Notes: a model not told the origin generated them from the letters alone. Numbered from the stretch's first letter, positions 37-16,776 are shown. The stretch is 16,776 nucleotides of DNA from an uncultured Clostridia bacterium (GCA_937886445.1 CALGBY010000058.1:1-16776); one strand, 5' to 3'. Numbers and translations: made by a program.

Positions 37-67
37 TGTTATTTCCTCCGTTAATCATATTGATCGA

Positions 68-2143: not shown

Positions 2144-2179
2144 GCGGTTAACTCCTGTAATAATTTATATACGGAAGAA

Positions 2180-2650: not shown

Positions 2651-2847
2651 ACATTAGCCTCCTTAAGTAGCGATCCTCTTTTTGCTTTTCCTTCGCTGTC
2701 CGGAGCATGTCAGCATCATGCTCTTCCGGTTTCAGGCACCGGGCGGCATTTCCGGCACGGCGGGATAAAGTGTTCCGGCTTTATCTCCTGCCTTACGCAC
2801 CGCAAAGCCACCGGGCGGCAGCACATCGGAAAAACGTTTCGGGATCC

Positions 2848-3222
2848 TTATTTCTTGGGACGCTTGGCGCCGTACAGAGATCTTGCCTGCATACGCTTGG
2901 CAACACCGGCAGTATCGAGCGCGCCGCGGATGATGTGGTAACGGACGCCGGGCAGGTCACGTACACGACCGCCGCGGATGAGCACCACGCTGTGTTCCTG
3001 CAGATTGTGGCCGATTCCGGGAATGTAGCAGGTACCTTCGATGGAATTGGTCAGGCGGATTCTCGCGATCTTACGAAGAGCGGAGTTCGGCTTCTTGGGC
3101 GTCATTGTTTTAACGCTCAGGCAGACGCCGCGCTTCTGCGGGCAACCCTGCAGGATGGGTGCTGTGGACTTCTTGACAACCTTTTCTCTTCCCTTGCGGA
3201 TCAGCTGATTGATCGTCGGCAT
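2848..3222 (-). CDS. rpsL: 30S ribosomal protein S12
   Basis: Tracked ORF 2848..3399 is over-extended. The real start is the internal ATG at 3222 ([12 protein letters not shown]...), preceded by AGGAGG (rc of 3231-3236). 124 aa with [11 protein letters not shown] and GGRV(R)DLPGVRYH motifs. Confidence 0.95.
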
Positions 3223-3417
3223 GGAAGCACCTCCTGATAATTGTTCGGAGCCTGCCGAAACAGGTCCTCCTCCTATAAAATCCCCGCAACCCTCGGGAAT
3301 ATATAGTCTTAATGATTTTTGTGCTTTCAGGCGTTTTTTCCACCTTTTCATGCGATTTACGGGATACCCGTCATTGCATTCAAAGCACAGTTGCCGCATA
3401 GTACAGACAACTATAAC

Positions 3418-3446
3418 ATAATATCATTACTGTTTTATATTGTCAA
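3418..3446 (-). promoter_or_regulatory. Sigma-70-type promoter of the str operon (TTGACA-17-TATTAT)
   Basis: On the minus strand, TTGACA (rc of 3441-3446), an exact 17-nt spacer (3424-3440), then TATTAT (rc of 3418-3423). This predicts a leader of about 190 nt before rpsL. Confidence 0.55.
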
Positions 3447-3508
3447 TACCCGATTTATCAAAGATTCCGGGCGATCGGTCACGAAAACAGCAGGAAAAAC
3501 AGGCAGGG

Positions 3509-3607
3509 GATCACGGGTAAAGAACCGGCCGGCAATGACTGTACCGGCAGGCTCCGGACACAGCACGGATCCGGGGCCCGCCTCCGGATAAGAGAAAACC
3601 CGTGATC
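3509..3607. repeat. 99-nt GC-rich element closed by a perfect 10-bp inverted repeat
   Basis: GATCACGGGT (3509-3518) and ACCCGTGATC (3598-3607). Internal sub-hairpins include GCCGG/CCGGC and ATCCGG/CCGGAT. It lies in the 320-nt gap between the AraC terminator and the rpsL promoter. Confidence 0.5.
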
Positions 3608-3754
3608 GTGCAAAAGGCGCCGCAAATGAGCCCGCCGGTCGCTCGGCGTTTCATCAGAAGCCCTATGGAAGAAACGCCCCGTAAAGGGAAACAGAAAAGA
3701 GGCAATGAAATTAATGTGAAAAGATAGTGAAAAATATTATATATCTGTTATGTG

Positions 3755-3793
3755 CCATTAAAAGGCCGCCGCGGATCATTTCACCGCGGCGGC
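3755..3793 (-). terminator. Rho-independent terminator after the AraC gene / ABC operon
   Basis: Perfect 10-bp GC stem GCCGCCGCGG (3765-3774) / CCGCGGCGGC (3784-3793) with a 9-nt loop. On the minus strand it is followed by CTTTTAAT. It starts 15 nt after the AraC stop codon. Confidence 0.65.
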
Positions 3794-3807
3794 TTTCATC
3801 CGGCATC

Positions 3808-4716
3808 CTACATATAGGTGCCGTATATGCTTCTGAATCTGGTAGGCGTACAGCTGTGTATCTGACGGAAGATGCGGTTGAAGGTGGCAAGGCTGCGGAA
3901 GCCGGATTCCCTGGCTACCTCGGCCACGGGCTTTCTGGTGTGCAGCAGCATCTCATCCGCCACATTCAGCCTCCGCCGGTTCAGATATTCCACAAAGGTA
4001 AGGCCGGTAAAGGAATTGAAGGAGCGGGAAAAATAGAACCGGGAAAAGCCGGCGAAGGCCGCCACCTCTTCAAGCGTGATGTTTTTCCTGAAATTCTGCT
4101 CGATAAAGGTGATCGCGCTGTTCATCAGCTCCGGATTCACGCTCTGCTTCGCGCTCTCGCTGCCGGGAAGCTCTTCCTCGTTTTTCACCATCGCCAGCTG
4201 AGCGTACATTTCCATAAAGAACCCGTAGCAGCGGGTGTTCCACAGCAGGGGTCTCTCGCTGTAGCACTGAGCGCAGCGCGTCAGCGTATCCGCGATGGCC
4301 TCGGCGTTCTTATCCCCCGCCCGCAGCACGCGCGGCGTATCCATCCATTCCTTGAGCGGCTGAAAATCGCGCATGGTAAGCAGCGGATCCGGCTCAAAGA
4401 GAAAGAGCAGACGGGAGGAATCCTCGCAGGAGTTCATCGAGTGGGTGTGGTTGGGAGAAATGAACAGCATATCCCCCTTTGCAAGCGATATGCGCCTGTC
4501 ATCCACCATAAAGATCACCTCGCCCTTCCTGCAAAGGGCGATCTCGATGGCGCTGTGGCGGTGCGGGGCATAGTAATCCGCCTCGTCCGAGGGCCACACA
4601 CGCACCGAGGAATGCTCGGCATAGGTGATGTATTCCTGTGTTCCGTTCAGGATGCGGAAACCGTCCGGAAAGCGTTTGTTTGCTCCGGAAGTGTTCGCTC
4701 TGTCTTCTGCTGCCAT
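3808..4716 (-). CDS. AraC-family transcriptional regulator (cupin-like sensor plus C-terminal AraC-type HTH)
   Basis: 302 aa. The C-terminus (ITLEEVAAFAGFSRFYFSRSFNSFTGLTFVEYLNRRRL...ESGFRSLATFNRIFRQ) is a typical double-HTH AraC domain. The N-terminus has a cupin-like HRHSAIEI...G motif. GAGGAAAC RBS overlaps the end of the upstream permease gene (10-nt gap). Confidence 0.85.
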   Translation of the reverse strand: MAAEDRANTSGANKRFPDGFRILNGTQEYITYAEHSSVRVWPSDEADYYAPHRHSAIEIALCRKGEVIFMVDDRRISLAKGDMLFISPNHTHSMNSCEDSSRLLFLFEPDPLLTMRDFQPLKEWMDTPRVLRAGDKNAEAIADTLTRCAQCYSERPLLWNTRCYGFFMEMYAQLAMVKNEEELPGSESAKQSVNPELMNSAITFIEQNFRKNITLEEVAAFAGFSRFYFSRSFNSFTGLTFVEYLNRRRLNVADEMLLHTRKPVAEVARESGFRSLATFNRIFRQIHSCTPTRFRSIYGTYM

Positions 4717-4726
4717 GGCTGTTTCC

Positions 4727-5650
4727 TCAGCCCTTTACGCTGCCCAGAGCCATGCCTGTAACAAAGTACTTCTGCAGGAAGGGGTATACCACCATGATGG
4801 GAACAGCGGAAATGACCATGATCGCGCAGCGGATTGTGATGGGCGTCACCTGCTTGCCGCTGCTGCTGGCGGCGGCGTCCACCGTCTGGTTGGCGGAGCC
4901 GGCCTGGTTCTGTGTGGAAGCCAGCATGGCGTTCAGCTTGTACTGCAGGGTGTGCAGTTCCTTTTTGCCGGCGGCATAAAGGCGGGTGTCGAACCAGCTG
5001 TTCCAGCTGCCCACGGCCACGAACAGGGCCACCGTAGCCAGCACAGGCAGGCACAGAGGAAGGATGATCGAGAAGAACGCGCGGATATCGCTGGCGCCGT
5101 CGATGCGGGCGCTCTCAAGCAGCGCCTCAGGCAGGCCGGCGATATAGGTGCGGATCACTACCATATTGAAACAGGAGAACATGCTCGGGATGATATATGC
5201 CCAGTAGGTAGATCCCAGACCCAGCGTGTTGTTCACAAGCAGGAAATTGGGGATCAGACCCGCGTTGAAATACATGGTGAACACCATGAGTACGGTGATC
5301 GGCTTGCGGAAAATGTATTCTCTCCTGCTGAGCGCGAAGGACAGCATGGAGGTAAAGAACAGGTTGAGCACCGTAATGATCACGGTTTTTGAAGTGGAGA
5401 TCCAGAAGGCCTGATAGATATCCTTATCGTTCAGCATCTGCTGATAGGCCTGCAGGGAAAACTTGCGGGGATACACGGTGATGCCGCCGCGTACGGCGTC
5501 GATACCGTCGTTAAAGGAAATGGCCACGGTGTTCAGAACGGGATACAGCGTAATGATCATGATCACGATCAGGATCACCGTGTTTACGATCGGGAAAGCG
5601 ATATCCCCTTTTTTTATGCGTTTCTTCATTCTCGCGGCAACTGTACTCAT
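4727..5650 (-). CDS. Carbohydrate ABC transporter permease (CUT1, LplC/YtcP-like)
   Basis: 307 aa, multi-TM. EAA-type loop (LPEALLESARIDGASDIRAFFSIILPL). GGAGG RBS (rc of about 5657-5661). 19-nt gap to the upstream permease gene. Confidence 0.85.
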   Translation of the reverse strand: MSTVAARMKKRIKKGDIAFPIVNTVILIVIMIITLYPVLNTVAISFNDGIDAVRGGITVYPRKFSLQAYQQMLNDKDIYQAFWISTSKTVIITVLNLFFTSMLSFALSRREYIFRKPITVLMVFTMYFNAGLIPNFLLVNNTLGLGSTYWAYIIPSMFSCFNMVVIRTYIAGLPEALLESARIDGASDIRAFFSIILPLCLPVLATVALFVAVGSWNSWFDTRLYAAGKKELHTLQYKLNAMLASTQNQAGSANQTVDAAASSSGKQVTPITIRCAIMVISAVPIMVVYPFLQKYFVTGMALGSVKG

Positions 5651-5669
5651 CAGGATACCTCCTTCCTCG

Positions 5670-6620
5670 TCAGATCAGCGAATCTTCGCCGACTTTTTTG
5701 GAGATCGTATTGGCGCCCAGCAGCAGCACGATGGCCACGGCGGATTTGAAGATACCCGCGGCGGTAGCCAGCGAATAGTTGGGCGTCTGCATGCCCAGGC
5801 CGAAGCGCATCACGAATACGTCGATCGTCTGGGAACGGGAACGGATCAGTCCGTTGCCCATCAGGTACTGCATTTCGAAGCCCGCTTCCATCAGATGTCC
5901 GATATTCATGATCAGAAGGATCACGAAGGTGGACCGGATGCCGGGCAGGGTGACATTCAATATCCTCTTGAAGCGGCCGGCACCGTCGATGGCCGCGGCT
6001 TCATAGAGGCAGGGGTCAATGGAGGTCATTGCGGAAATATAGATGATGGTGCCCCAGCCCACTTCCTTCCACACATTGATGATGCCCTGCAGCCACCAGA
6101 AGTGCTGCGGCTCACCCAGCCAGAAGACGGGCTTGTCTGTGATGCCGAGGCCCGTAAGCACAGCGTTGACGGGACCGTCGGTGGCAAAAATGTTCTGCGA
6201 CATACCCACAACGATCACCATGCTCAAAAAATGAGGCAGATAGGTGACCGTCTGCACGGTACGCTTGAAGGCGCGGTTGCCCACTTCGTTGAGCAGTACG
6301 GCCAAAAGGATCGCGCTCACAGTGCTGAACACCAGGTTGATGATGCTCATCGCCAGCGTGTTCACGATGCTCTGGAGAAACTCGCTGTCGCCAAACAGCC
6401 ACACGAAGTGTTGAAGGCCCACATAGGTGCTTCCTTCTATGCCGGCCTTGGGGTCATAGTTCATGAAGCCGGTCAGCCAGCCCCACATGGGAGCATAGTT
6501 AAAGAGCAGCACATAGAACAGCATGGGCACACTCATGACGATGAGCCATTTCTGTTGTGCCAGCGTCTGCGCTAAGCTTTTCTTCTTTACAAATTCCGGT
6601 GTCTTTATGCTGCCTGACAT
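5670..6620 (-). CDS. Carbohydrate ABC transporter permease (CUT1, LplB/YteP-like)
   Basis: Multi-TM protein with EAA loop (YEAAAIDGAGRFKRILNVTLPGI). The tracked start at 6626 is a TTG. The ATG at 6620 sits 9 nt after AGGAG and is preferred. Confidence 0.85.
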   Translation of the reverse strand: MSGSIKTPEFVKKKSLAQTLAQQKWLIVMSVPMLFYVLLFNYAPMWGWLTGFMNYDPKAGIEGSTYVGLQHFVWLFGDSEFLQSIVNTLAMSIINLVFSTVSAILLAVLLNEVGNRAFKRTVQTVTYLPHFLSMVIVVGMSQNIFATDGPVNAVLTGLGITDKPVFWLGEPQHFWWLQGIINVWKEVGWGTIIYISAMTSIDPCLYEAAAIDGAGRFKRILNVTLPGIRSTFVILLIMNIGHLMEAGFEMQYLMGNGLIRSRSQTIDVFVMRFGLGMQTPNYSLATAAGIFKSAVAIVLLLGANTISKKVGEDSLI

Positions 6621-6686
6621 AAACAAATGCTCCTTTCCAAAAAGTCATGGGGAGAGCAGTGCTCTCCCCATGACCCGAAAGATTAA

Positions 6687-8348
6687 TTACTCGCCGAGAG
6701 CTTCCTTAACGAGCTTGAGAACTTCTTCCTGCATGAAAGCAGAGTAGATCTCGCAGGAGGGGTTGATCCTCTCAACGAAAGCGTCCCAGGTAGCGTCAAA
6801 GTCAGCGGGAGCAGCCATGATGACCTTGGGCAGGTCTTCATCCTGGTAGGCCAGGAACTGCTGGTTGTAAACGAGGTCGATGGGGGTCTTGTCGATCTGC
6901 CAGGCTTCTCCGTAGGGAGCCAGCTCCAGCGTCTTGTCGAACACATCACCGGGCACCTTCAGGCCGCAGGCGGCGAGGAAGTCGATGGTGTACTGATCCA
7001 TCATACCGAAGTACATTTCAGCCTGATCGCCGGGAGCCCAGGCGTTGCCGTCATCCTGCAGACCCTGCTTCTTGGGAGCGGATTCCCAGATGGCCAGAGC
7101 CTGGTTGGCGCGCTTCCATTCGGCGTTGTTGCGCTGATCGTACTGCTCCTGAGTCATGAGCATACGGCCGTTTTCTACATAGTAATCTTCGCCTTCGATA
7201 CCCCACTGGAGGATCTTCTGCCATTCGTCGCTCAGCAGAGCTTCAAGCAGGGCGATAACGCGCTCGGGGCACTCGCAGCCGACGGAGATACCGAAGCCGC
7301 GGTCCTTGTTCATGACGGTACCATTTACATAGTGCTCGTCGATCTTGCCGTAGCCATAGCTCTCGTCATAAACGAGGGGAATGCCCAGGTAGGTGTTCTC
7401 ATACATGCCGGCATCCTTCAGCGCCTGATCAGCAGTGCCGAAGTCCCAGCCCTGGTCGAACATACCGAGTACGATGCCGGAAGAAAGCTGGGCAATGTAC
7501 TGGTCATAGTTCATAACGAAGGTGTCAGCCTTGATGATGCCCTTGTTGAATTCTTCGTTCAGCTTGGCATAGTAGGGCTTGGCATAGGGCTGATTGATGA
7601 AGGTAACGGTCTTGTATTCGGGGGTGGTGATGTCGATGAGGACTTCACCGTCATTGGGACGGCCCATCAGATGCTGTACGGGGTTGATCAGGCAGAAATG
7701 ACGCCAGTCTTCGCACAGGATGTCAAAGCCGATGTATTCGGTGCCGTTCTTATCGGTGGGGTTGGCAGCGAGGAAGCGCTCGATCAGGTCGAAGTATTCA
7801 TTCAGGGTGGTGGGGATCACGTAGTTGTTCCACGCGATGACCTGCTTCTGGATGAAGAACATGGGGCCGTTGGGAGCGTTCTGCACCTGGCCGTTGTAGT
7901 TGATGCCGTAGTTGGGGATGATGTACAGTTTGCCATCATGCAGCAGCTGGGCAATGCGGTTGTCGGTGTAGATGTGCTTGTAGAGGTTGGGAGTGCCTTC
8001 CTCGGTGATGTAGGGCAGCATATCGATGAGAGCGCCGGCGTTCTCAAGGATCTCGGCAGAGTTGCCGCCGTCCCACAGGTCGGGATAGTTCTCTTCGCCG
8101 CCGGCAAGCTTGATGCCGAGGGTCTCGTTCAGGTCGCCGGTCAGGAATTCGATCTCAAACTTGATGCCGAATTCTTCTTCGATCTTCTTGTAGATCTTGT
8201 TGTCTTCGGTAGGCTGGTCACCGGGATCGCCGCGGAACACGGTGAGGGTGATCGCTTCGTTACCGGACTCTTCTTCCTCGGCCAGCACAGAGGGCACGAG
8301 GGATACCAGCATGATCAGAGCCAGTACCATAGCCAGGATCTTCTTCAT
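6687..8348 (-). CDS. Large extracellular solute-binding protein of the sugar ABC transporter (LplA-like)
   Basis: About 553 aa. Start moved to the ATG at 8348 (MKKILAMVLALIMLVSLVPSVLA/EEEE), 7 nt after GGAGG (rc of 8356-8360). It has an N-terminal signal peptide. Size and operon position are typical of LplA-type SBPs. First gene of the SBP-permease-permease-AraC operon; no ATPase gene is present. Confidence 0.85.
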   Translation of the reverse strand: MKKILAMVLALIMLVSLVPSVLAEEEESGNEAITLTVFRGDPGDQPTEDNKIYKKIEEEFGIKFEIEFLTGDLNETLGIKLAGGEENYPDLWDGGNSAEILENAGALIDMLPYITEEGTPNLYKHIYTDNRIAQLLHDGKLYIIPNYGINYNGQVQNAPNGPMFFIQKQVIAWNNYVIPTTLNEYFDLIERFLAANPTDKNGTEYIGFDILCEDWRHFCLINPVQHLMGRPNDGEVLIDITTPEYKTVTFINQPYAKPYYAKLNEEFNKGIIKADTFVMNYDQYIAQLSSGIVLGMFDQGWDFGTADQALKDAGMYENTYLGIPLVYDESYGYGKIDEHYVNGTVMNKDRGFGISVGCECPERVIALLEALLSDEWQKILQWGIEGEDYYVENGRMLMTQEQYDQRNNAEWKRANQALAIWESAPKKQGLQDDGNAWAPGDQAEMYFGMMDQYTIDFLAACGLKVPGDVFDKTLELAPYGEAWQIDKTPIDLVYNQQFLAYQDEDLPKVIMAAPADFDATWDAFVERINPSCEIYSAFMQEEVLKLVKEALGE

Positions 8349-8393
8349 AAAGGTTCCTCCTTCATATTTTGGCATTGCTGCCAGATGAATATA

Positions 8394-8421
8394 TTATTAT
8401 CCCGCACAGGCAATATCGCAA
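8394..8421 (-). promoter_or_regulatory. Candidate promoter of the ABC operon (TTGCGA-16-TAATAA)
   Basis: Minus strand: TTGCGA (rc of 8416-8421), a 16-nt spacer, TAATAA (rc of 8394-8399). It overlaps the third GGGATAA repeat. Alternative -10 choices exist in this AT-rich patch. Confidence 0.3.
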
Positions 8422-8475
8422 TGTAATATCTGGTCGAATTCGTTCACATTTTGCTATCTGATTATCATATTTTGC

Positions 8476-8489
8476 TGTAAGCGGTTTTT
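8476..8489. promoter_or_regulatory. Possible catabolite-responsive element (cre-like)
   Basis: TGTAAGCGGTTTTT matches 12 of 14 positions of the Firmicutes cre consensus TGWAANCGNTNWCA. It lies about 130 nt upstream of the SBP start. Confidence 0.25.
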
Positions 8490-8564
8490 ATCCCGTTCCG
8501 GCAAGTTATGACACATGATTTTCCGGTTTTGTCGTTTTCCCGCCTGTTTTATCCCTGTTCGTTC

Positions 8565-8600
8565 AAAAAAAGGACCGGTACGCCATTTGGCACCGGTCCC
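8565..8600 (-). terminator. Rho-independent terminator of the GH13-tsaC transcript
   Basis: Stem GGACCGGT (8572-8579) / ACCGGTCC (8592-8599). On the minus strand it is followed by a T7 run (A run at 8565-8571 on the plus strand). Confidence 0.65.
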
Positions 8601-8838
8601 CTGTGCGCAAAAACTGATTGAAACATGCCGTTTCAAAACATCCGTCCGGCTGCTTCTTCGCGTTTTTTGTACTCACACGCGCTTTACATACGATGCCGCG
8701 GGCTTTTCTCGCGCTCTATGTTTATGATCCGCCCTCCGGTAATGAGCTTTACAGCTCATAGTTTATAACTTTCAGTCCGTCGGATAATCCGCCTGAAGAG
8801 GCACCGATGGGCTGTTTGAAAATGATCCGTATACATTT

Positions 8839-9855
8839 TCAAACTTCTCTTAAATCAAAGGCAGCAGCCCTCGCCATGCGGTTCATCACGGCCAGCGCCT
8901 CTCCCTTTACCGCCCAGCCCTCGGTAAGGATGCGGGTATAGCCCTCCTCATCCATCTCCCTCAGCAGAGCAAACAGCAGACGGGCGCTGTCCATCGCGTC
9001 CTTTCCCACGCTCTTCGCGTTCATCCCCTCATAAGATGCCAGATGATCCTCATGGCAGAGGACGCAGGTGTTTTCCTCGAGCGGATATTCCTTCAGCACC
9101 GCGCGGCGCACATTCTCCGCCTCTCCCAGAAACACGGTCATGCGCCCTTTCGGGGCATAGTGGCGGTGCTTCATGCCGGGGCTGGGGGCTTTTTCATTTT
9201 CCCGCAGCGGGCGCATCACGCTGTCCGCCACGCTGCAGCCGCCGCACACGGCGGCCACCATCTCCTGTGTGACCGCGCCGGGGCGGAAGATCACGGGCTC
9301 GGGGCCGGATACATCCAGCACCGTGCTTTCCACGCCCACCCGGCAGGCCCCGCCGTCAATGATCAGCGGGATGCGCCCGTTCATATCCTCAAACACATGC
9401 TGCGCGGTCGTAGGGCTGGGGCGGCCGCTCAGGTTGGCGCTGGGCGCGGCGATGGGCGTGCCCGCGGCGGCGATCAGCGCGAGCGCGGCGGCATGGTCGG
9501 GCATGCGTATCCCCACGGTATCAAGGCCCGCCGTGGTCACATCCGGCACGGAGGAGGTTTTCGGCAGAAGCATGGTGAGCGGTCCGGGCCAGAACGCGGC
9601 GGCCAGCTTTTTCGCGTTCCCGTTGATCTCACACAGGCCGTCCAGCATATCTAATGAAGAAATGTGTACGATGAGCGGGTTGTCCTGCGGACGGCCCTTG
9701 GCGATAAAAATGCGTTTTACGGCTTCGGCGTTCAGCGCGTCCGCGCCCAGGCCGTACACCGTTTCGGTGGGAAAGGCCACCAGTTCCCCTTTCCGGATCA
9801 GCTCACCCGCCTCGCGGATGCTCTCCTCTCCGGGCAGAACGATGCGTGTATCCAT
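8839..9855 (-). CDS. tsaC: L-threonylcarbamoyladenylate synthase (Sua5/YwlC-type TsaC, with C-terminal Sua5 domain)
   Basis: 338 aa. N-terminal YrdC signature (VAFPTETVYGLGADALNAEAVKRIFIAKGRPQDNPLIVHI) followed by a long C-terminal extension typical of Sua5. 21-nt gap after the GH13 gene. Confidence 0.9.
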   Translation of the reverse strand: MDTRIVLPGEESIREAGELIRKGELVAFPTETVYGLGADALNAEAVKRIFIAKGRPQDNPLIVHISSLDMLDGLCEINGNAKKLAAAFWPGPLTMLLPKTSSVPDVTTAGLDTVGIRMPDHAAALALIAAAGTPIAAPSANLSGRPSPTTAQHVFEDMNGRIPLIIDGGACRVGVESTVLDVSGPEPVIFRPGAVTQEMVAAVCGGCSVADSVMRPLRENEKAPSPGMKHRHYAPKGRMTVFLGEAENVRRAVLKEYPLEENTCVLCHEDHLASYEGMNAKSVGKDAMDSARLLFALLREMDEEGYTRILTEGWAVKGEALAVMNRMARAAAFDLREV

Positions 9856-9876
9856 GTATATGATTGCCTCTTTTCA

Positions 9877-11652
9877 TCATTTCGCGTCGCGGCGGTTGAA
9901 CACCATTTCAATCTCTCCAGAGCTCTGTTCCTCGCCGAACACATCTTTTCCGTCGCGGATGAAGCGGCGGATGATCAGCGTATCGTCATCCGGCGCCTCC
10001 GCCTCCACATCGCCGGTCTTCAGCAGCGGCGAGGCAAGGCGTTCGTTCAGTATCCCGCTCACCTTCCGCAGCATTTCCGTATCTCCGCCCTCCCATTGGT
10101 AGGGAGCGCGGCAGAAGGGATCGGGCGCGCCCTGCATGCCGATCTCATCCCCGTAGTACACGCAGGGGGTGCCCGGCAGCGCGCACAGGATGGACAGCAT
10201 CATCAGGTACCTCGCCTTCCCCAGGCGGTATTCCTCCTCCGTAAGCCTCCTGCCCCTGCGTTCCTCCGGCTCCAGTTCCTCAAAGGTGCGCCCCGCCAGA
10301 TAGTTGACAGCCCGCGCCCGGTCATGGCTGCCGGCCAGATTCATCAGGGAATAGTAGAAGGGCTTCGGATAATTTTCCTTCTGGCTCTGTATGATCCTGC
10401 ACAGGGTAAAGGCGCTGGAGCGGAAGGTGAGAAAATTCATCACCGCCTCGCGCAGCGGGTAGTTCATCACGCTGTCCAGCGTATCGCCGGTGCAGTAGCA
10501 GCGCATTTCCCCATACGCCACCTTGTGGCTGGCGTCCTCCCACACCTCGCCCAGCACAAGGCTGTCGGGCTTTTCGCGCTTCGCGGCGCGCCGCAGGGCA
10601 CGCAGAAAATCCATAGGCAGCTCATCCGCCACATCCAGCCGCCATCCGGAGGTACCGCGTCTCAGCCACCTTCTCACCACGCCGTCCTTTGAAAACATGA
10701 AGCGGTTGTAGGAGGGGGAGCGCTTGTTGATCTCGGGCAGGCTGGTAAAGCCCCACCAGCAGCGGTATTTATCGGGAAAATGTTCAAAGGTGTACCAGCT
10801 GTAATAGGGACTTTTCTCCCCCGTGCAGGCGCCGCGCCGGTGATAGCGGTCATACCGGTCGAAATACACGCTGTCATCGCCCGTATGGCTGAACACGCCG
10901 TCCAGGATCACGCGCATGCCCAGCGCCTCCGCCGCGCGGCAAAGCTCCGTCAGGTCCTCCTCCGTTCCCAGCAGCGGGTCCACCTTCGTGTAATCCGCCG
11001 TATCATAGCGGTGATTGGAACGGGCCATGAAGATCGGGTTCAGGTACACCACCGTGATGCCCAGCTTTTTCAGATAGGGCAGCTTTTCTTCGATCCCCTT
11101 CAGGTTACCGCCGAAAAAGTCCAGCTCCGGCGTCCTCTTGCCGTCCGGCCCCGTGATGAACACGGGCTCCTCATCCCAGACCTCGTGCAGATACGCGTTT
11201 TTCCTGCCCTCCGGCAGCGCGCGGGGCGCGGGGGAAGCGTAAAAGCGGTCGGGAAAGATCTGGTACATCGTGCCCTCGCGCATGAAGGCGGGTACGGTAT
11301 ACCCTTTTTCATACACGGTGATCTGATAGCCGCGGGGCTGCCACCGGCTCATTTCCCCCGTGCCGCCCAGCATGGCGGCGTTGTTGCCGTAATAGAGCAC
11401 ATCGCCCTCATTGTTTTCGGCCCGGAAATCATACCAGCACAGCATGGGCACATCGGGCATGGTCAATGTATATTCAAACAGCTCCTCGGCGATCATATCC
11501 ATCGGATAGAAGAACTCGCTGCCGTTATAAAAGCGCAGAAACACCCTGTCCGCGCCGATCGCCCGGATCCGTATAGCCACGGAAGCCGTACATTCCAGCG
11601 CCCCGCCGGGGTTGCGGAAACGGATGTCAAAGGAATCGTGATACAGATGCAT
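9877..11652 (-). CDS. GH13 alpha-amylase-family enzyme, neopullulanase/cyclomaltodextrinase-like, cytoplasmic
   Basis: 591 aa with no signal peptide. GH13 conserved regions are present: DGVFSH (I), GWRLDVADE (II), GEVWED (III), LAGSHD (IV). The N-terminal domain before the barrel resembles that of neopullulanases. Confidence 0.9.
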   Translation of the reverse strand: MHLYHDSFDIRFRNPGGALECTASVAIRIRAIGADRVFLRFYNGSEFFYPMDMIAEELFEYTLTMPDVPMLCWYDFRAENNEGDVLYYGNNAAMLGGTGEMSRWQPRGYQITVYEKGYTVPAFMREGTMYQIFPDRFYASPAPRALPEGRKNAYLHEVWDEEPVFITGPDGKRTPELDFFGGNLKGIEEKLPYLKKLGITVVYLNPIFMARSNHRYDTADYTKVDPLLGTEEDLTELCRAAEALGMRVILDGVFSHTGDDSVYFDRYDRYHRRGACTGEKSPYYSWYTFEHFPDKYRCWWGFTSLPEINKRSPSYNRFMFSKDGVVRRWLRRGTSGWRLDVADELPMDFLRALRRAAKREKPDSLVLGEVWEDASHKVAYGEMRCYCTGDTLDSVMNYPLREAVMNFLTFRSSAFTLCRIIQSQKENYPKPFYYSLMNLAGSHDRARAVNYLAGRTFEELEPEERRGRRLTEEEYRLGKARYLMMLSILCALPGTPCVYYGDEIGMQGAPDPFCRAPYQWEGGDTEMLRKVSGILNERLASPLLKTGDVEAEAPDDDTLIIRRFIRDGKDVFGEEQSSGEIEMVFNRRDAK

Positions 11653-11684
11653 AAAGCGTACGCTCCGAAAAAAGTTTACAATTT

Positions 11685-11713
11685 ATTATACTCTCAGTCT
11701 CCCCCGCAGGCAA
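11685..11713 (-). promoter_or_regulatory. Candidate promoter for GH13-tsaC (TTGCCT-17-TATAAT)
   Basis: Minus strand: TTGCCT (rc of 11708-11713), a 17-nt spacer, TATAAT (rc of 11685-11690), about 33 nt upstream of the GH13 ATG. Confidence 0.45.
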
Positions 11714-11857
11714 GCAATGCTTTTTCGGAAGTTTCATGGAAAACAACGCAAAAAGAGGCCCGAAAACGGCAAAAACGGCTGCCGACATGTTCCGAAGGCA
11801 GCGGCGGCGCGTTTTCGGGCTCATTCGCGCACCGTATCCCGATTTCATGCCGCGCTA

Positions 11858-11886
11858 TGGTCAGAAGCGGATTTGTATGCTATAAT
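11858..11886 (+). promoter_or_regulatory. Candidate extended -10 promoter for the paralogue operon (TGcTATAAT)
   Basis: Perfect TATAAT at 11881-11886 with TGC at 11878-11880. Weak -35 TGGTCA at 11858-11863 (17-nt spacer). About 55 nt upstream of the first paralogue. Confidence 0.5.
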
Positions 11887-11941
11887 AGAGCGTAAGATGT
11901 TTCCGGCAAGCACTGCTTCCGGCTTATACAGGAGGACCGTC

Positions 11942-12601
11942 ATGAAAAAGTACCTTTGTCTGCTCGCCGTAATAGGGCTGCTGCTGCCCTCCGCGTGCTT
12001 CGCCCTGCAATTGAAAATGCCCGAAATGAGCGAGAAAAACAGTTATTCCTACGAAAACCCCGTGCTGGGCTATTCACTGCGCGTGCCGAAGGCGCTTGTT
12101 TCCCTGCCGGACAGCGATCTTGCGGAAATACTTGACAACGCGCACAGCAGAGCCGGGTTCGGCGAGGACGATTATCTGTACGATGTACGCATATGGGGCA
12201 TGGCCGCCTCCGCCTCCGATACACTGGTGCTTGAGGTCCAGCTGAAAAAGTGCACTCATACCGATTTTGAAACAGAGGTGGCAAACGCGCCCAACTACAG
12301 TGAAAGGCAGGAGGCGCAGCAGGCCGAACAGGGAAACGATGTAAGCATCACCATGCTGCACGACGGCATGCTGCGCGAGACCCCGGCGGGCACCATGCTG
12401 GAAATGGCCTGCGTATGGCACTATACGGACGCAGACGGCACCCCCCGCGATACCATGCATGTGTATTATGATTACTACTGCAACAGCATCGAATACTGCT
12501 TCGTTCTGGAAGCGCCCGAACGCCTTGTGACCCTTGAAGGCATGCAGAAACTGCTCGCAGACATCATGGAAACCGTAAGGATCGAAAATGTGATAGAATA
12601 A
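11942..12601 (+). CDS. Secreted protein of unknown function, paralogue 1 of 3
   Basis: Start moved to the ATG at 11942 (MKKYLCLLAVIGLLLPSACFA/LQL), preceded by AGGAGG (11930-11935). It has a signal peptide. Colinear similarity to the next two ORFs (LGYSLRxP, LKKC, LHxGxLRETPxGxMLE, YYDxYxNxIEY, IENVI). Confidence 0.85.
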   Translation: MKKYLCLLAVIGLLLPSACFALQLKMPEMSEKNSYSYENPVLGYSLRVPKALVSLPDSDLAEILDNAHSRAGFGEDDYLYDVRIWGMAASASDTLVLEVQLKKCTHTDFETEVANAPNYSERQEAQQAEQGNDVSITMLHDGMLRETPAGTMLEMACVWHYTDADGTPRDTMHVYYDYYCNSIEYCFVLEAPERLVTLEGMQKLLADIMETVRIENVIE

Positions 12602-12693
12602 ACGGCAGCACCGCGCGGATGAGGCCGTGCTCAGCGTGCCGAAGAGCCGCGCGATACTGCCTGAGGATCAATAAAGAAAGGAAAAGATCAGCC

Positions 12694-13365
12694 ATGAAAA
12701 GAAAAGTGACCGCCGCGCTCTCCGTTCTGCTCACCCTGTGCATGCTCCTTCCGCTGTGCGGACAGGCCCTGCAGGTGCAACTGCCCGAAGTGACGGAAAG
12801 CAATTCCTCGCCCTACGCGGATCCGGTGCTGGGATATTCCTTCCGGATCCCGGACTATCTTACTCCGCTTCCGGAGGAATATGAAAAGCTGCTCCTTGAC
12901 GAGCAGAACAAGGAGAAGGAATTCGGCGATGAAGAGTGGCACTATGATGTGCAGGCCTGGTTTACCCCCGTTTCCTCCGGCGAAATGCTGTTTTTTGAGG
13001 TAACGCTCAAAAAGTGCAGCAATGAAAGCTTTGAAAACGAGGTGGCGCAGGCCCCATACTATGCCGAAAACGCCCGGAAGCAGTTCAGCGAGGCCGGGCG
13101 GGATGCGCATATCACCATGCTGCATGACGGCATCCTGCGCGAGACTCCCGCGGGGCAGATGCTGGAGATCGCGGTCATCCAGGAGGAAACCCTTGAAGAC
13201 GGAACACAGTCCTCTGAGCTGTTCATTTACTACGATTTTTACTGCAACACCATCGAATATATCTTCGCGCTCACCGCGCCGTCCCGGCTGGTATCGTACG
13301 AAAGCATGCAGAAGCTGCTTGACAGCATCGTAAACACCGCCGAGATACAGCATGTGCTTGAATAA
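12694..13365 (+). CDS. Secreted protein of unknown function, paralogue 2 of 3
   Basis: Start at the ATG at 12694 (MKRKVTAALSVLLTLCMLLPLCGQA/LQV). The RBS (GAAAGGAAAAG) is weaker. It shares the motif set of paralogues 1 and 3. Confidence 0.85.
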   Translation: MKRKVTAALSVLLTLCMLLPLCGQALQVQLPEVTESNSSPYADPVLGYSFRIPDYLTPLPEEYEKLLLDEQNKEKEFGDEEWHYDVQAWFTPVSSGEMLFFEVTLKKCSNESFENEVAQAPYYAENARKQFSEAGRDAHITMLHDGILRETPAGQMLEIAVIQEETLEDGTQSSELFIYYDFYCNTIEYIFALTAPSRLVSYESMQKLLDSIVNTAEIQHVLE

Positions 13366-13399
13366 AAACGACATAAACGATCATAAGGAGGAAACACCC

Positions 13400-14089
13400 A
13401 TGAAAAAAACCGTATGCGCGATCCTTTCCCTCATGCTTGCCCTGCTCCCCGCCCTGTGCACCGCGGAGCTGAGCCTGACCATTCCCCATGTAACGGAAGA
13501 AAACTCAACGGAATACAGCGACACCTATCTGGGCTATTCCCTGCGCATCCCCGATTTCCTCGTCAAGGTCAACGACACCTACCTGAGGCAGTATCTTGAA
13601 AGCATGAACGAAGGCAAAACGCCGGACAGCGCGGACTATGTGTACGACAGCCATCTCTGGGGCACGCAGGTCAGCAGCGAAAGCGCGATGATATTTGAAA
13701 TACAGCTCAAAAAGTGCACCAATGAAAGCTTTGAAAAAGAAGTGGAAATGGCTCCCCGCTATGAGGAGATCGAAAACGCCATGCTGGAAGAAACCGGCAG
13801 CAGCACCCGCATAGCGCAGCTGCACAACGGCATCCTGCGCGAGACCCCGATGGGCACCATGCTGGAAATGGCCTATACCGTCAACTATCTGCTTGATGAC
13901 GGTTCCTCCTCGCAGGAGACCCATGTCTATTACGATTTTTACTATAACACCATTGAATATATCTTCCTGCTGGAAGCGCCCACCGAGCTGATCACGGTGG
14001 AAAGCATGCAGCAACTGCTCAGCGAGCTGATGCAGTATGTGCAGATCGAAAATGTGATCTCCGATACCGCCGCCCCCGCCGCCGCGTAA
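13400..14089 (+). CDS. Secreted protein of unknown function, paralogue 3 of 3
   Basis: Start at the ATG at 13400 (MKKTVCAILSLMLALLPALCTA/ELS), preceded by AAGGAGG (13385-13391). Same motif set, plus a short C-terminal DTAAPAAA tail. Confidence 0.85.
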   Translation: MKKTVCAILSLMLALLPALCTAELSLTIPHVTEENSTEYSDTYLGYSLRIPDFLVKVNDTYLRQYLESMNEGKTPDSADYVYDSHLWGTQVSSESAMIFEIQLKKCTNESFEKEVEMAPRYEEIENAMLEETGSSTRIAQLHNGILRETPMGTMLEMAYTVNYLLDDGSSSQETHVYYDFYYNTIEYIFLLEAPTELITVESMQQLLSELMQYVQIENVISDTAAPAAA

Positions 14090-14148
14090 ACAGCGGAATT
14101 ACGGGAAAAACCGGATGATCTGCGAATATGCGGAGGAGCTGACAGGCC

Positions 14149-15171
14149 GTGTGTAAGATAAAAAAAGCTTTGACCGTTCTGCTTGCGATCCTTGTTTTCT
14201 GCAATGTCCTTCCGGCATCCGCGAAAACCCCGAAAAAAAACATATATGCCTACTTCATCAACGGCAGAGAGATCGACCGGCTTGCGGAAGCGCTGCCGGT
14301 CCTGGTCTCATACGGAACGAACGCTGTCATTCTGGACGAATCTGTCTTTCATTACCGTACAGAAGCGCAAACCGCTGCTCTGTGCGCAGAACTCAAAAGT
14401 AAAGGCATCACTCCTTACATCCGGATACAGGTATGGTATAGGGATGATCATTGGATCTCGCCGCTCACCCAGCCCGGCTTTCCGGTATTCCGGCAGGATA
14501 TTGTCGATCAACAAAAAGCCGTCATCACAGACTACCTGAAGCTGGGCTTCTCCGGCATTGTGCTCGATGATGTTCTGTTTCCCGGAACAGCGGAAAAATA
14601 CGGAACGGAAAACGCGTGCAGCGCCATTACGGAAACGGTGAAGCAGCTTAATGAAGCAGCAAAGAGCACAGACCCGGATGCTGTTCTTGCCGTGATGGTC
14701 AAGCCCGACATTGAAGGGCGGAACAGGATTGATTACGGTCAGGATGTTGCGGAAATAAGCAAAAACGCGGATATCGTTATCCCGATGATGTACATCGATA
14801 TTGAGAGATGGTCCGCGAAAGAAATGACCCGGATGATCGGGAAATTCGTTGATACAATACAGCCGGGCACTAAACCGGTCGTCGCCCTCCATACATATAA
14901 CGCGCTCAATAACGACGAACCGCTTTCCTATCAAAAGCTGTTTGATGATGTGAAAAGCGCGGTCCGGGCCGGTTCAAACGGTGTTATGCTGTGGCAGCTG
15001 GGGCTGTCGGAGATCATTGATTTTACAAAGCTTTCTTCCATGCCCGGCACCGGCGATCATGCGCCGCTCGCTCTCCCCGCAGCAGCAGCGCTGCTGTCTT
15101 CCTGTGTGTTCCTTTGGCTTCTCTGCTTTGAACGCAGGCGAAGCCGGAAGGCACGGCAGATCCGTTTTTGA
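14149..15171 (+). CDS. Secreted glycoside-hydrolase-like TIM-barrel protein (GHL10/DUF4015-like by eye) with C-terminal cell-wall sorting signal
   Basis: GTG start 12 nt after GGAGGA (14132-14137). Signal peptide MCKIKKALTVLLAILVFCNVLPASA/K. The motifs GFSGIVLDDVLFPG and ADIVIPMMY resemble GH-like TIM-barrel families. The C-terminus is MPGTG, then about 25 hydrophobic residues, then ERRRSRKARQIRF. No terminator separates it from paralogue 3. Confidence 0.7.
   Translation: MCKIKKALTVLLAILVFCNVLPASAKTPKKNIYAYFINGREIDRLAEALPVLVSYGTNAVILDESVFHYRTEAQTAALCAELKSKGITPYIRIQVWYRDDHWISPLTQPGFPVFRQDIVDQQKAVITDYLKLGFSGIVLDDVLFPGTAEKYGTENACSAITETVKQLNEAAKSTDPDAVLAVMVKPDIEGRNRIDYGQDVAEISKNADIVIPMMYIDIERWSAKEMTRMIGKFVDTIQPGTKPVVALHTYNALNNDEPLSYQKLFDDVKSAVRAGSNGVMLWQLGLSEIIDFTKLSSMPGTGDHAPLALPAAAALLSSCVFLWLLCFERRRSRKARQIRF
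15040..15168 (+). other. Tripartite sortase-type sorting signal (MPGTG / hydrophobic segment / Arg-Lys tail)
   Basis: The last 43 residues are MPGTG-DHAPLALPAAAALLSSCVFLWLLCF-ERRRSRKARQIRF. The architecture equals an LPXTG signal, but the first motif residue is Met. Confidence 0.6.
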
Positions 15172-15182
15172 CCCTGAAAGTT

Positions 15183-15232
15183 TCTCTGAAAAATCTCGGA
15201 AAAATTCTCCGAAAAAAGGGTTCTCGAAAAAA
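15183..15232. repeat. Four tandem imperfect direct repeats TCTCnGAAAAA (phased A-tracts)
   Basis: TCTCTGAAAAA (15183), TCTCGGAAAAA (15194), TCTCCGAAAAAA (15206), TCTCGAAAAAA (15222). Start-to-start periods are 11, 12 and 16 nt. Non-coding, between the GH-like gene and the LysM-peptide promoter. Confidence 0.7.
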
Positions 15233-15245
15233 GTTTTCCGTTTCA

Positions 15246-15285
15246 TTGTACCTCCCCGCGGCTCCCTCGTATGTATATGTGTCCG
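15246..15285 (+). promoter_or_regulatory. Candidate promoter plus shared motif upstream of the GG-LysM peptide gene
   Basis: TTGTAC (15246-15251), an 18-nt spacer, then the TATGTATAT region (15270-15278). The 19-mer TCGTATGTATATGTGTCCG (15267-15285) matches 16 of 19 positions of 16449-16467, upstream of the second GG ORF. Confidence 0.4.
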
Positions 15286-15347
15286 GCACAAAAGCCGGGA
15301 CAAAAAATACGAAAAACTGCCATACAGGCTGAAAAGGAGATACCAAA

Positions 15348-15602
15348 ATGGAAAACGCTGAGAAGATCATCAACATCATCACCGATGACGAACTGGAAAA
15401 TGTGAACGGCGGCAGCATGCCCAAGGAAGACCCCGGCAAAGGCTACAAGTGGTACCAGATCCAGCCCGGCGACAATCTGAGCCGCATCGGAAGCATCTAC
15501 CACATCAGCGTGGACAAGCTGATGGCGATCAATCAGGACCGCCGCGGGATCAAGGACAGGAACCATATCATTGCCGGGTTCTGGATCCGCGTGCCCCGGT
15601 AA
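15348..15602 (+). CDS. Double-glycine-leader peptide with a LysM-domain core (84 aa)
   Basis: AAAAGGAGA RBS 8 nt upstream. The leader MENAEKIINIITDDELENVNGG fits the GG-leader consensus at positions -15, -12, -11, -8, -7, -4, -2 and -1. The core YQIQPGDNLSRIGSIYHISVDKLMAINQ...IIAGFWIRVP reads as LysM. It is followed by a strong terminator. Confidence 0.8.
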   Translation: MENAEKIINIITDDELENVNGGSMPKEDPGKGYKWYQIQPGDNLSRIGSIYHISVDKLMAINQDRRGIKDRNHIIAGFWIRVPR

Positions 15603-15635
15603 ACAAACCCCGTAAGAACACGGAGATTAAAAGAA

Positions 15636-15680
15636 CACGGCCGGCAGATCGGACTGATCCGCCGGCCGTGAATTTTTCTG
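15636..15680. terminator. Bidirectional rho-independent terminator between convergent genes
   Basis: Perfect 10-bp stem CACGGCCGGC (15636-15645) / GCCGGCCGTG (15661-15670). It is followed by AATTTTTCTGTTTTT on the plus strand and TTCTTTTAAT on the minus strand. Confidence 0.75.
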
Positions 15681-15684
15681 TTTT

Positions 15685-16209
15685 TCACACAAGACCGCGA
15701 AGACGCCTTTTCAGCGCGAGGGCGATCGGGATACCGGGGAAAAGCATCACAAAGGAATCAAGCGCCCACGCGGCCAGGGCGGTGGGGATCTTCAATTCCG
15801 GCCTCAGGCTGTACAGAACGCAGTCGATCACCGTTTTTACCGTGACCCCTGCCAGCATGGACAGCACGACGACTGCCGCCGCCTTCAGCCAGAACCGTCC
15901 AGACGGGGCATCCGCTTCCTTATACAGCACGCGTCCGCAGGAAAAGCCCACAATGGCGTTCATCACGATCCAGCCGAAAGCGATGCCGCGCTGGCTCATC
16001 AGCATGCTCTCGATCAACACGCCCGCCGCGCCGATGACCGCCGCCGGCACCGCGCCCAGATAGACCGCACCCACCGCCAGAGCGATATATCCCAGGTCCA
16101 GCTTGATATTGCCCGCCACCGGGATCTTCAGCAGCGTGGAAAGCACAAAATAGAGCGCGGTAAGCACGCCTGTCATCACAACTTTTTTCGTCTTCTTCGT
16201 ATTTTTCAT
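15685..16209 (-). CDS. Small polytopic membrane protein, ECF-transporter S-component-like (substrate unknown; folate/QueT-type size)
   Basis: 174 aa. Lys-rich N-terminus followed by about 5-6 hydrophobic helices rich in Ala/Gly (TGVLTALYFVLS..., LGYIALAVGAVYLGAVPAAVIGAAG...). Size and pattern are typical of solitary ECF S components. The family call is by eye only. Confidence 0.55.
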   Translation of the reverse strand: MKNTKKTKKVVMTGVLTALYFVLSTLLKIPVAGNIKLDLGYIALAVGAVYLGAVPAAVIGAAGVLIESMLMSQRGIAFGWIVMNAIVGFSCGRVLYKEADAPSGRFWLKAAAVVVLSMLAGVTVKTVIDCVLYSLRPELKIPTALAAWALDSFVMLFPGIPIALALKRRLRGLV

Positions 16210-16353
16210 TCTGTTCTGTACGCTCCTTGCCGCCGGCAGACGGCGTAAACCTCAGGGGATACCTCCGCCGGCTCCGGTATCGCCGTCTGTTCCGGCATAC
16301 AGGAGCACCCGCGGACACTTCATGATGATAGCACAAAAGCCGGCTGTTGAAAA
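16210..16353 (-). promoter_or_regulatory. Promoter (TTTTCA-17-TGcTATCAT) and structured ~110-nt leader sequestering the RBS; candidate riboswitch
   Basis: On the minus strand, the -10 TATCAT is rc of 16325-16330, with TGC and a -35 TTTTCA (rc of 16348-16353). In the leader, GCCGGAACAGACGGCG (rc of 16281-16296) pairs with CGCCGTCTGCCGGC (rc of 16232-16245). There is an inner hairpin GATACC/GGTATC. GCTCCT (rc of 16301-16306) can pair with the AGGAGC of the RBS (RBS AAGGAG is rc of 16223-16228). Confidence 0.4.
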
Positions 16354-16596
16354 GATAAAACGCGTGCCGCCGCGAAGAGCAACCCGGCAGAGCCTGCAAA
16401 CGCCCCTGCCCCCGCCCAAAATACTCAGTGTCCCTTTTCGCGTGTCCATCGTATATATTTATGTCCGCGGGGAAGTAAAAAAGATCGTGCACAGCCGATC
16501 TGCTGACGGCCCTTCGCCGTCTCATCCTGAGGACGGGCCGAAAGCGGCAAAAGAAGTAATAAATAAGCTGAAAACAGATAAAAGGAGAGAAAACAC

Positions 16597-16776
16597 ATGA
16601 AGAACACAAAGCTGCAGAAACTGTTTGACTACCAGATCTTCTCCGGCAACAGGGAGATCGAAAAGATGTACCGCGAAGCGGAAAACCGGAACGCCGAGGC
16701 GCTCAGTCTGGATGACCTGGCCTTTGTGGCCGGCGGCGTCCGCTCCGATGAAGCGAAGGACGAAAAGCAGAACTGA
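16597..16776 (+). CDS. 59-aa ORF with internal double-glycine-type motif and short charged tail (not in the ORF track)
   Basis: ATG at 16597, 8 nt after AAAAGGAGA, the same 9-mer as at the LysM peptide gene. Translation: MKNTKLQKLFDYQIFSGNREIEKMYREAENRNAEALSLDDLAFVAGG-VRSDEAKDEKQN. The stop TGA is the last 3 nt of the window. Confidence 0.55.
   Translation: MKNTKLQKLFDYQIFSGNREIEKMYREAENRNAEALSLDDLAFVAGGVRSDEAKDEKQN

Follow-up and report, generated by a model that had tools for sequence, protein, structure and literature searches.

The DNA analysed here, called the window, is a 16,776-nt stretch from an uncultured Clostridia bacterium (CALGBY010000058.1, positions 1 to 16776), and it ends in a small gene that encodes a protein of 59 amino acids (aa), MKNTKLQKLFDYQIFSGNREIEKMYREAENRNAEALSLDDLAFVAGGVRSDEAKDEKQN, with the TGA stop codon as its final triplet (Table 1). 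An earlier interpretation made without database searches, the sequence-only reading, had taken this open reading frame (ORF) for an unannotated gene with a good ribosome-binding site (RBS), encoding a 47-aa leader that closes with a double-glycine motif and a short tail to be released from it. The coordinates and the RBS, AAGGAGAG, bear out the description of the ORF. Its main features had also been read correctly: in residues 36–47, LSLDDLAFVAGG, the hydrophobic positions −12, −7 and −4 of a leader motif are occupied by L36, L41 and V44, position −11 is Ser, and G46 and G47 supply the Gly pair at −2/−1, and seven of the 12 residues of the tail, VRSDEAKDEKQN, are Ser, Asp, Glu or Lys. An AlphaFold2 model of the window protein, built on an alignment of 81 sequences, places helices at residues 4–16, 19–31 and 38–45, in agreement with the helical N-terminal part noticed before, and leaves the tail unstructured (block means of the predicted local distance difference test, pLDDT, are 84–91 for residues 1–30 and 53 for the tail).

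The ORF is a real, protein-coding and previously unannotated gene. The identical protein is a called gene on nine metagenome contigs, a 97% variant on two and a 78% variant on one, making calls on 12 contigs. The 78% variant (P0003) is carried by a locus, L012, whose setting differs from that of the window: upstream of the gene are a LacI regulator and a sugar transporter, and downstream of it is a group II intron. The likeness of the two DNAs is confined to the stretch from the RBS through the stop codon. Over codons 1–47 they differ by 12.5 synonymous and 3.5 non-synonymous changes, which gives a ratio of non-synonymous to synonymous divergence (dN/dS) of about 0.05 at a dS of about 0.65 over this conserved domain; the sequence-only reading had proposed this comparison as a check. 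The 12 tail codons are saturated (pN 0.54), and the tail of the relative, TANEGNEEEKRS, is as long as that of the window protein without having kept its sequence. The low dN/dS together with the saturation of the tail argues for a protein-coding gene in which codons 1–47 are strongly selected and the sequence of the tail is not.

Profile searches confirmed another suggestion, that the 47-aa leader might define a family with variable tails. Among 1.84 billion cluster representatives (50% identity) there were 80 matches at E ≤ 1e-3, all of 57–117 aa apart from P0064, a TIR/NB-ARC/TPR protein of 1,317 aa that had matched through its repeat composition and was discarded as a relative. A second search with the 81-sequence alignment reached at least 1,420 clusters of 90% identity at E ≤ 1e-5, and the family proteins span 57–135 aa. 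The few among the matches listed that bear a name are called "hypothetical protein", and one of 120 among the matches listed from the second search carries a Pfam entry. The consensus, MExKLKxLFDYQxFxxNxxLxxxIxExExRxxxxLSDDDLxxVxAAG, describes a three-helix N-terminal domain of 45–47 aa that is followed by a variable tail; in the 81 representatives Q13 and L41 are invariant, and L6, F10, F15, N18 and L36 are at least 90% conserved. The tails of 193 members are 7–88 aa long (median 21), rich in G, E, K, D and N and almost without cysteine, two or more being present in seven of them. Some share subfamily motifs (EWYGxxNxPGxFExGS, WGxGQxGEI and QYxIHIY, in P0041, P0045, P0047 and P0026; P0012 and P0079; P0020 and L017), and the tail of P0040 is a zinc ribbon. 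Gly at −2 is the most conserved position of double-glycine leaders, and the sequence-only reading had made its case depend on the conservation of GG in homologues. It is not conserved: the domain ends in AAG in 167 of the 193 members (87%) and in GG in 22, with GG retained in the closest relatives P0002, P0003 and P0005.

Scans of the window protein and its 81 relatives against Pfam, NCBIfam and PHROGs assigned no family and gave a few matches to Gly-Gly leader models, below threshold. The window protein matched neither of the leader models TIGR03798 and TIGR03793, and three of the 81 relatives touched TIGR03798 at E 0.03 or weaker. A PDB sequence search and a Foldseek search with the AlphaFold2 model found no match, as did tblastn of the family consensus against plasmids, and residues 1–32 showed no likeness to anything known.

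A species-level scan, with one genome per species and a 26-sequence subset of the alignment, gave 66 loci, or 56 distinct ones once duplicates were removed. All are in Clostridia (among them Lachnospiraceae, Oscillospiraceae, Acutalibacteraceae, Butyrivibrio, Ruminococcus), chiefly from rumen or gut. When the neighbouring ORFs were clustered independently of annotation, the commonest neighbour family, present at 55 of the 66 loci, was a same-strand protein (about 165 aa) that combines Sigma70_r2 and r4 domains and matches TIGR02937, the extracytoplasmic function (ECF) class of sigma factors, at 107 bits with a cut-off of 43. The small gene abuts the sigma gene in 47 of the 56 distinct loci (84%), lying upstream in 34 and downstream in 13. 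Where the small gene comes first, the gap is at most 6 nt in 33 of the 36 junctions measured and the two genes overlap in 27, with ATGA-type coupling. The sequence-only reading had looked to a histidine kinase and response regulator or to a modification enzyme as neighbours; the steadiest neighbour is instead this ECF sigma-factor gene, to which the small gene is often translationally coupled. It is directly followed by the family gene in the case of P0004 (54% identity), the nearest relative outside the window lineage. A conserved membrane anti-sigma gene 3' of the sigma gene was also considered and rejected, none being found. Because the double glycine is not conserved and the sigma gene is the steadiest neighbour, the conserved "leader" looks like the working part of the protein and the tail looks unconstrained. 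Tails are 13–21 aa long in small-then-sigma loci, with one exception, and 12–19 or 34–56 aa long in sigma-then-small loci. Two loci hold two family genes each, one linked to a sigma gene and one not (L065, 3103–4269; L069, 5306–8195), so a linked copy does not preclude additional unlinked ones.

The genes of the family also appear to have a promoter in common. Upstream of the gene, the window and L012 share almost only GT[G/A]TCC-N16-CGTATATAT; the site in L012 (6135–6169) scores 28.8 bits and has the spacing and the CGTATA of the window site. The family consensus is (C)AGTA[T/G]CC-N16-(T)CGTATA[A/T]A, that is GTAGCC/GTATCC-N16-CGTATA. A position matrix (PWM) was trained on eight sites. In the related loci 29 sites then reached 17 bits or more (28 on the gene strand); shuffled sequences yielded none. 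The sites lie just 5' of the small gene or of a cargo gene (see below) that precedes it, and in sigma-then-small loci the site is found in the spacer between the two genes. By a simple match score of at least 10, sites were present in 10 of 66 regions upstream of small genes and in 20 of 2,000 random segments. When left out of the training set, the window site still scored 20.0 bits and was the sole site of at least 9 bits on either strand of the 16.8-kb window, the 95th percentile of the maximum score in shuffled windows being 15.8 bits. At 16428–16455, therefore, there is a site with CGT in its −10 element and with conservation upstream of related genes, as expected of an ECF-type promoter; a CGTATA −10 element with a 16-nt spacer is typical of such promoters, for example those of Bacillus subtilis sigma-W. 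The predicted 5' leader of the transcript (fold of 16460–16600, −37.2 kcal/mol, z −2.0) has no conserved counterpart in L012, whose promoter is some 80 nt 5' of the ATG. Two extra promoter-like sites with no obvious gene after them were seen in L034.

Next in frequency among the neighbours of the family comes a protein of some 725 aa in which Peptidase_C39, ABC_membrane and ABC_tran domains are combined and which scores 893 bits, above the cut-off, against TIGR03796 (NHLP bacteriocin export peptidase/ATPase). Its gene is usually preceded by a short HlyD-like gene and paired in tandem with one for a TIGR03797 partner. Such an NHLP-type exporter occurs within 8 kb in 36 of the 56 distinct loci (64%), and 20 have none in the 8-kb flanks that were fetched. 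Over the 66 loci the only conserved neighbour families are the sigma factor, the exporter, a radical S-adenosylmethionine (SAM) enzyme, Nif11-type precursors and the HlyD-like protein, and a radical-SAM/SPASM gene stands directly upstream of the small gene in 20 loci. One group (L036, L039, L043, L061, L062 and L077, for example L077 1974–6555) holds 4–10 tandem Nif11-type precursors with Gly-Gly leaders and Cys-rich cores of 60–80 aa, in the order exporter (at some loci), precursors, radical SAM/SPASM, small gene, sigma; these clusters look like a large multi-precursor system of rumen and gut Clostridia for small proteins or for peptides made by the ribosome and modified after translation (RiPPs). 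Of the 19 exporter loci checked, 10 have canonical Gly-Gly cargo genes next to the small gene, and the notion that the small gene is the sole possible cargo of the exporter loci was dropped on this account. Cargo genes adjoining the small gene include those of L031 (5518–5949), L013 (8245–8496), L022 (4940–5296 and 6475–6837), L027 (4649–4873) and L042 (7801–7959).

Cargo in these loci always has GG, whereas the small family mostly has AA followed by Gly-Glu/Asp. An hhalign comparison of the family with the co-located Nif11-type cargo leaders nevertheless aligned 19 columns (probability 87%, E 3.7e-6), matching LSDDDLxxVaAAg to ELSDeELDnVaGG with the AA of the family under the GG of the cargo. 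This profile match argues that helix 3 is a true exporter-recognition motif; to judge from it, helix 3 belongs with the motifs by which ATP-binding cassette (ABC) exporters with a C39 peptidase (PCATs) recognise their cargo. The identification of LSLDDLAFVAGG as a double-glycine motif has therefore stood up well, through its homology to cargo leaders and the presence of exporters within 8 kb of most family genes.

Taken together, we think the chances slightly better than even that the window gene is an orphan member of a family of small cytoplasmic proteins that are partnered with an ECF sigma factor, and that its product is probably an anti-sigma factor equipped with an exporter-recognition motif. 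A regulator carrying an exporter motif is likelier than the precursor of a modified peptide, because the sigma gene nearly always adjoins the small gene and exporters are often near. Of the sequence-only reading this leaves the real gene, the family leader and the exporter motif standing; the conservation of GG and a link to graspetides have fallen away, and the interest of the locus has moved to the sigma factor. The window copy is an orphan in the same sense as about 16% of the family genes.

A possible role for the protein could be as follows. GTGTCC-N16-CGTATA would be read by the cognate ECF sigma factor, encoded elsewhere in this organism, and helices 1 and 2 would bind that sigma factor and so make the protein its regulator. 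Most likely it would provide feedback in the manner of NepR with sigma-EcfG, as an anti-sigma factor that is small and soluble, and either an inhibitor or a helper could be accommodated. A PCAT may bind the protein through helix 3, perhaps cutting it after Gly47, and such binding or cutting would tie the activity of the sigma factor to the workload of the exporter. A more specific version, which we consider distinctly doubtful, would make the family a novel means of ECF sigma control, in which the anti-sigma factor poses as cargo of a C39-peptidase ABC exporter. The exporter would bind helix 3 and cut at the GG/AA site. Where the family has AA(G), as it commonly does, a cut after the two alanines would expose a C-terminal xAA, through which the anti-sigma domain would be passed to ClpXP; the sigma factor, once released, would transcribe the cargo genes and the small gene itself, and sigma activity would therefore follow the availability of the exporter. 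Fragments of clostridial RsgI anti-sigma factors that end in VAA, IAA or SAA are ClpXP substrates (PMC12203970). This route, speculative as it is, leaves out the window protein, whose fragment would end in AGG. Like other orphan copies, the window gene could serve as a second, separately placed brake on the same sigma factor.

Several observations weigh against a sigma-factor partner of this kind. Adjacency to a sigma gene, found in 47 of 56 loci of the family, is absent at the window copy and at 9 of the 56: no sigma factor or C39 exporter is encoded in the 16.6 kb upstream of the window copy, and neither is found in the 290 nt past its stop codon (733 nt in a variant), so that the partnership of this copy has to be read from its relatives. 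That the promoter is read by the cognate ECF sigma factor is something we infer. No recognisable anti-sigma domain (zf-HC2/RskA, NepR and the like) was found by Pfam and NCBIfam in 81 members, by PDB sequence search or by Foldseek. Known PCATs keep the leader in the cytoplasm after cleavage; as a cut at GG removes the tail only and the leader stays inside, cleavage by itself would not remove the anti-sigma domain. Finally, the motifs shared within tail subfamilies would fit tails that are exported products. A remnant of a sigma gene adjoining the window copy was also sought, and was ruled out when tblastn found none.

Among alternative sigma factors the ECF type forms the largest group, and the mechanism of control has yet to be established for many of its subgroups. 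To our knowledge, the peptide and RiPP export clusters of gut and rumen Clostridia have been mined intensively, and little is known about how they are switched on. The present loci would offer a module that can be tested, consisting of a sigma factor, a probable anti-sigma factor, a defined promoter and a candidate input in the exporter, and it could serve to activate silent clusters. Such a module would also explain why annotation misses genes of about 60 codons such as the window ORF, which has gone from an odd unannotated ORF to a gene with a predicted regulator and a predicted promoter.

The core idea of the sequence-only reading was an exported peptide. Worked out in full, the 47-aa part would be no more than a long leader, cut after GG by a C39-peptidase ABC exporter, and VRSDEAKDEKQN would be released as a signal or bacteriocin; the sigma factor adjoining the gene in relatives would do no more than switch the precursor on. 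We regard this as unlikely, although much of the evidence above can be read in its favour. The motif is of the leader type and homologous to the leaders of cargo, 36 of 56 loci have an exporter within reach, about half of the exporter loci checked showed no other Gly-Gly cargo gene, the promoter lies directly 5' of the small gene, and some tails share motifs. A conserved leader with a hypervariable core is, moreover, the known pattern of RiPPs such as the Nif11 and NHLP families. However, AA(G) stands in 87% of the members where cargo of the same locus has GG, and the tails are hydrophilic, unconserved among close relatives and, in all but one of the small-then-sigma loci, short; they also overlap the start region of the sigma gene, and a precursor gene would not usually be coupled translationally to that of a sigma factor. 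An exporter is missing from the 8-kb flanks of 20 of the 56 loci, as against 9 of 56 without an adjoining sigma gene, and an exported peptide would leave some 30 additional conserved residues without a job.

It is also conceivable that the window copy has lost its sigma partner, has no function and will itself be lost, but we think this very improbable. In its favour, no sigma gene adjoins the copy, the DNA downstream varies between strains and the assemblies break there, and in L012 the relative has a group II intron nearby. Against this, two orphan copies in different contexts have kept frame, length, RBS, promoter motif and terminator, and the dN/dS of 0.05 over the domain was reached at a dS of about 0.65. 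The ratio and the retained features together point to long-term purifying selection after the loss of the partner.

We give hardly any credence to a precursor whose Asp/Glu/Lys/Ser-rich tail would be modified into a graspetide with omega-ester or amide links or into a radical-SAM product: seven S/D/E/K residues in 12 and the radical-SAM/SPASM gene upstream in 20 loci speak for it, but the 66 loci have no ATP-grasp-like conserved neighbour family (individual neighbours were not scanned for ATP-grasp), the radical-SAM loci hold their own 4–10 Cys-rich Nif11-type precursors, few tails have two cysteines, no residue pattern, including Ser/Thr-Asp/Glu, is conserved in the tails, and no candidate modification-enzyme gene lies near the window copy, neither among the housekeeping and transport genes at 68–11652 nor at 11717–16209. 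A radical-SAM/SPASM precursor would have an adjacent maturase and a Cys-containing core; the window holds no maturase gene, and two or more cysteines occur in seven of the 193 tails. The resemblance to graspetides thus ends with the composition of the tail.

In comparison with known systems, a small anti-sigma factor of this family would most resemble NepR, which acts on sigma-EcfG in the PhyR system, and class II anti-sigma domains such as CnrY. These are likewise small (about 50–60 aa), soluble proteins of two to three helices, and their genes stand directly upstream of, and are co-transcribed with, that of an ECF sigma factor, behind an ECF-type promoter. In Alphaproteobacteria NepR is released from its sigma factor by binding another protein (partner switching), and our proposal follows this logic, with the exporter taking the place of that protein. 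NepR and CnrY are not similar to the family at the level of sequence or profile, however, the phylum is another one and no PhyR-like gene is present, and helix 3 of the family is an exporter motif, which NepR lacks. FlgM, a small, partly disordered anti-sigma factor of sigma-28 that is itself a substrate of an export machine, shares the idea that the activity of a sigma factor can report the state of an exporter. It is not homologous to the family and leaves the cell whole through the flagellar type III apparatus, whereas in our case the work would fall to a C39-peptidase ABC exporter, a type of machine that as a rule retains the leader in the cell and sends out what comes after it.

The double-glycine leaders of PCAT cargo (Nif11-type, TIGR03798; NHLP-type, TIGR03793; NHLP system TIGR03794/03796/03797) resemble the family in the spacing LSxxDLxxVxGG, in a long conserved N-terminal part with a hypervariable C-terminal part, and in co-occurrence with TIGR03796/03797. 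They differ in that the family reaches no leader model, that its residues 1–32 are unrelated to Nif11 and NHLP leaders, that its constant partner is a sigma factor and not a maturase, and that AA(G) takes the place of GG in 87% of its members. The regulated proteolysis of the anti-sigma factors RseA, RsiW and clostridial RsgI, with ClpXP acting through xAA, would have its counterpart in the N/S/A-Ala-Ala end that a C39 cut may leave; there the cutting is done by site-1 and site-2 membrane proteases, here it would be done by a domain of an ABC exporter, and the AGG end of the window protein would fall outside that scheme. The family appears to be undescribed: in the literature searched on anti-sigma factors and double-glycine motifs or PCATs, on ECF classification and on Nif11 with sigma factors, neither such a family nor such a mechanism is described. 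Both ingredients, the pairing of sigma with anti-sigma factors and the double-glycine leader, are known kinds, and their combination appears to be new.

Table 1. Features of the small gene and of the neighbouring part of the window
Feature	Position	Strand	Basis or remarks
Three tandem paralogous genes	11717–14089	+	294/248/245 aa
Gene for secreted-looking protein	14149–15171	+	340 aa
Gene for LysM protein	15348–15602	+	84 aa
Gene for S component of energy-coupling factor transporter	15685–16209	−	divergent from small gene
Spacer	16210–16596		390 nt
−35 element GTGTCC, predicted ECF-type family promoter	16428..16433	+	PWM scan
−10 element CGTATA, 16-nt spacer after −35	16450..16455	+	PWM scan
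Predicted 5' untranslated leader, about 120–135 nt	16460..16581	+	start inferred from promoter; moderately structured, RBS unpaired
Hairpin with T run	~16472–16501	−	observed in L002
RBS AAGGAGAG	16582..16589	+	7 nt 5' of ATG; sequence inspection
ORF, 59 aa	16597–16776	+	ATG at 16597, TGA at 16774–16776
Codons 1–35, family-specific stretch of conserved domain (KLQKLFDYQIFSGN...EAENR), predicted helices 1 and 2	16597..16701	+	AlphaFold2, conservation
Codons 36–47, LSLDDLAFVAGG, predicted double-glycine-type (C39 peptidase/ABC exporter) recognition motif, helix 3	16702..16737	+	hhalign, AlphaFold2
Codons 48–59, variable hydrophilic tail VRSDEAKDEKQN	16738..16773	+	unconserved; unstructured in AlphaFold2
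Stop codon TGA	16774..16776	+	intrinsic terminator hairpin just past window end

The sequence-only reading had left room for modification or export genes beyond the end of the window. In the contigs with the identical gene, the sequence directly 3' of the stop codon, AAAGCGCCCTATCCATCTTGGATAAAGCGCTTTTTTG, forms a hairpin that runs into a T tract (−19.4 kcal/mol, z −6.0; none of 200 shuffles was equally stable). Because this terminator hairpin follows the stop codon, the window gene is monocistronic, with no modification or export operon 3' of it. The sequence available past the stop reaches 290 nt at most in the contigs with the identical gene and 733 nt in the variant L004, and an exact-match scan of JGI metagenome contigs for the 3' end of the gene found no match. 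All assemblies of the window lineage (L001–L011) break 25–290 nt past the stop, which suggests a repeat there, and the last 110 nt before the breaks hold a long inverted repeat, TTTTCCGTCA...TGACGGAAAA. In L004 (215–947) the DNA diverges from 17 nt past the stop and leads into a fragment of a DUF86/HepT-like toxin gene. The junction 3' of the gene looks like a recombination spot. In L012, too, a strong hairpin with a T tract is present, some 130 nt past the stop codon, and its group II intron (6587–6657, minus strand; Rfam RF00029, 44.8 bits) lies 200 nt 3' of the 78% relative, with a maturase-like reading frame that extends up to 7010. An Rfam scan detected nothing in the window and, on related contigs, that intron only.

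Upstream in the window lie genes for EF-G, S7, S12, an AraC regulator, sugar-transporter permeases, Sua5 and an amylase, the large ORFs at 68–11652 being housekeeping or transport genes. They are followed by three paralogues without a Pfam match, a weakly GH18-like protein, a LysM protein and the S component of an energy-coupling factor transporter. The paralogues have hydrophobic N-termini that resemble lipoprotein or signal sequences. The GH18-like protein, whose similarity is to GH18/DUF4015, has a C-terminus (MPGTG, a hydrophobic stretch and RRRSRK) that resembles a sortase sorting signal. The S component is of the folate/riboflavin type, and no riboswitch was found by Rfam in the spacer between its gene and the small gene. 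The LysM protein joins a peptidoglycan-binding LysM domain (Pfam LysM, 2e-8) to a short Gly-Gly leader of canonical form (MENAEKIINIITDDELENVNGG), and its matches to bacteriocin leader models are below threshold; no family promoter site lies 5' of its gene. It is conserved in L001, L010 and L011, and its leader suggests that the organism exports cargo through a C39-peptidase ABC transporter encoded elsewhere.

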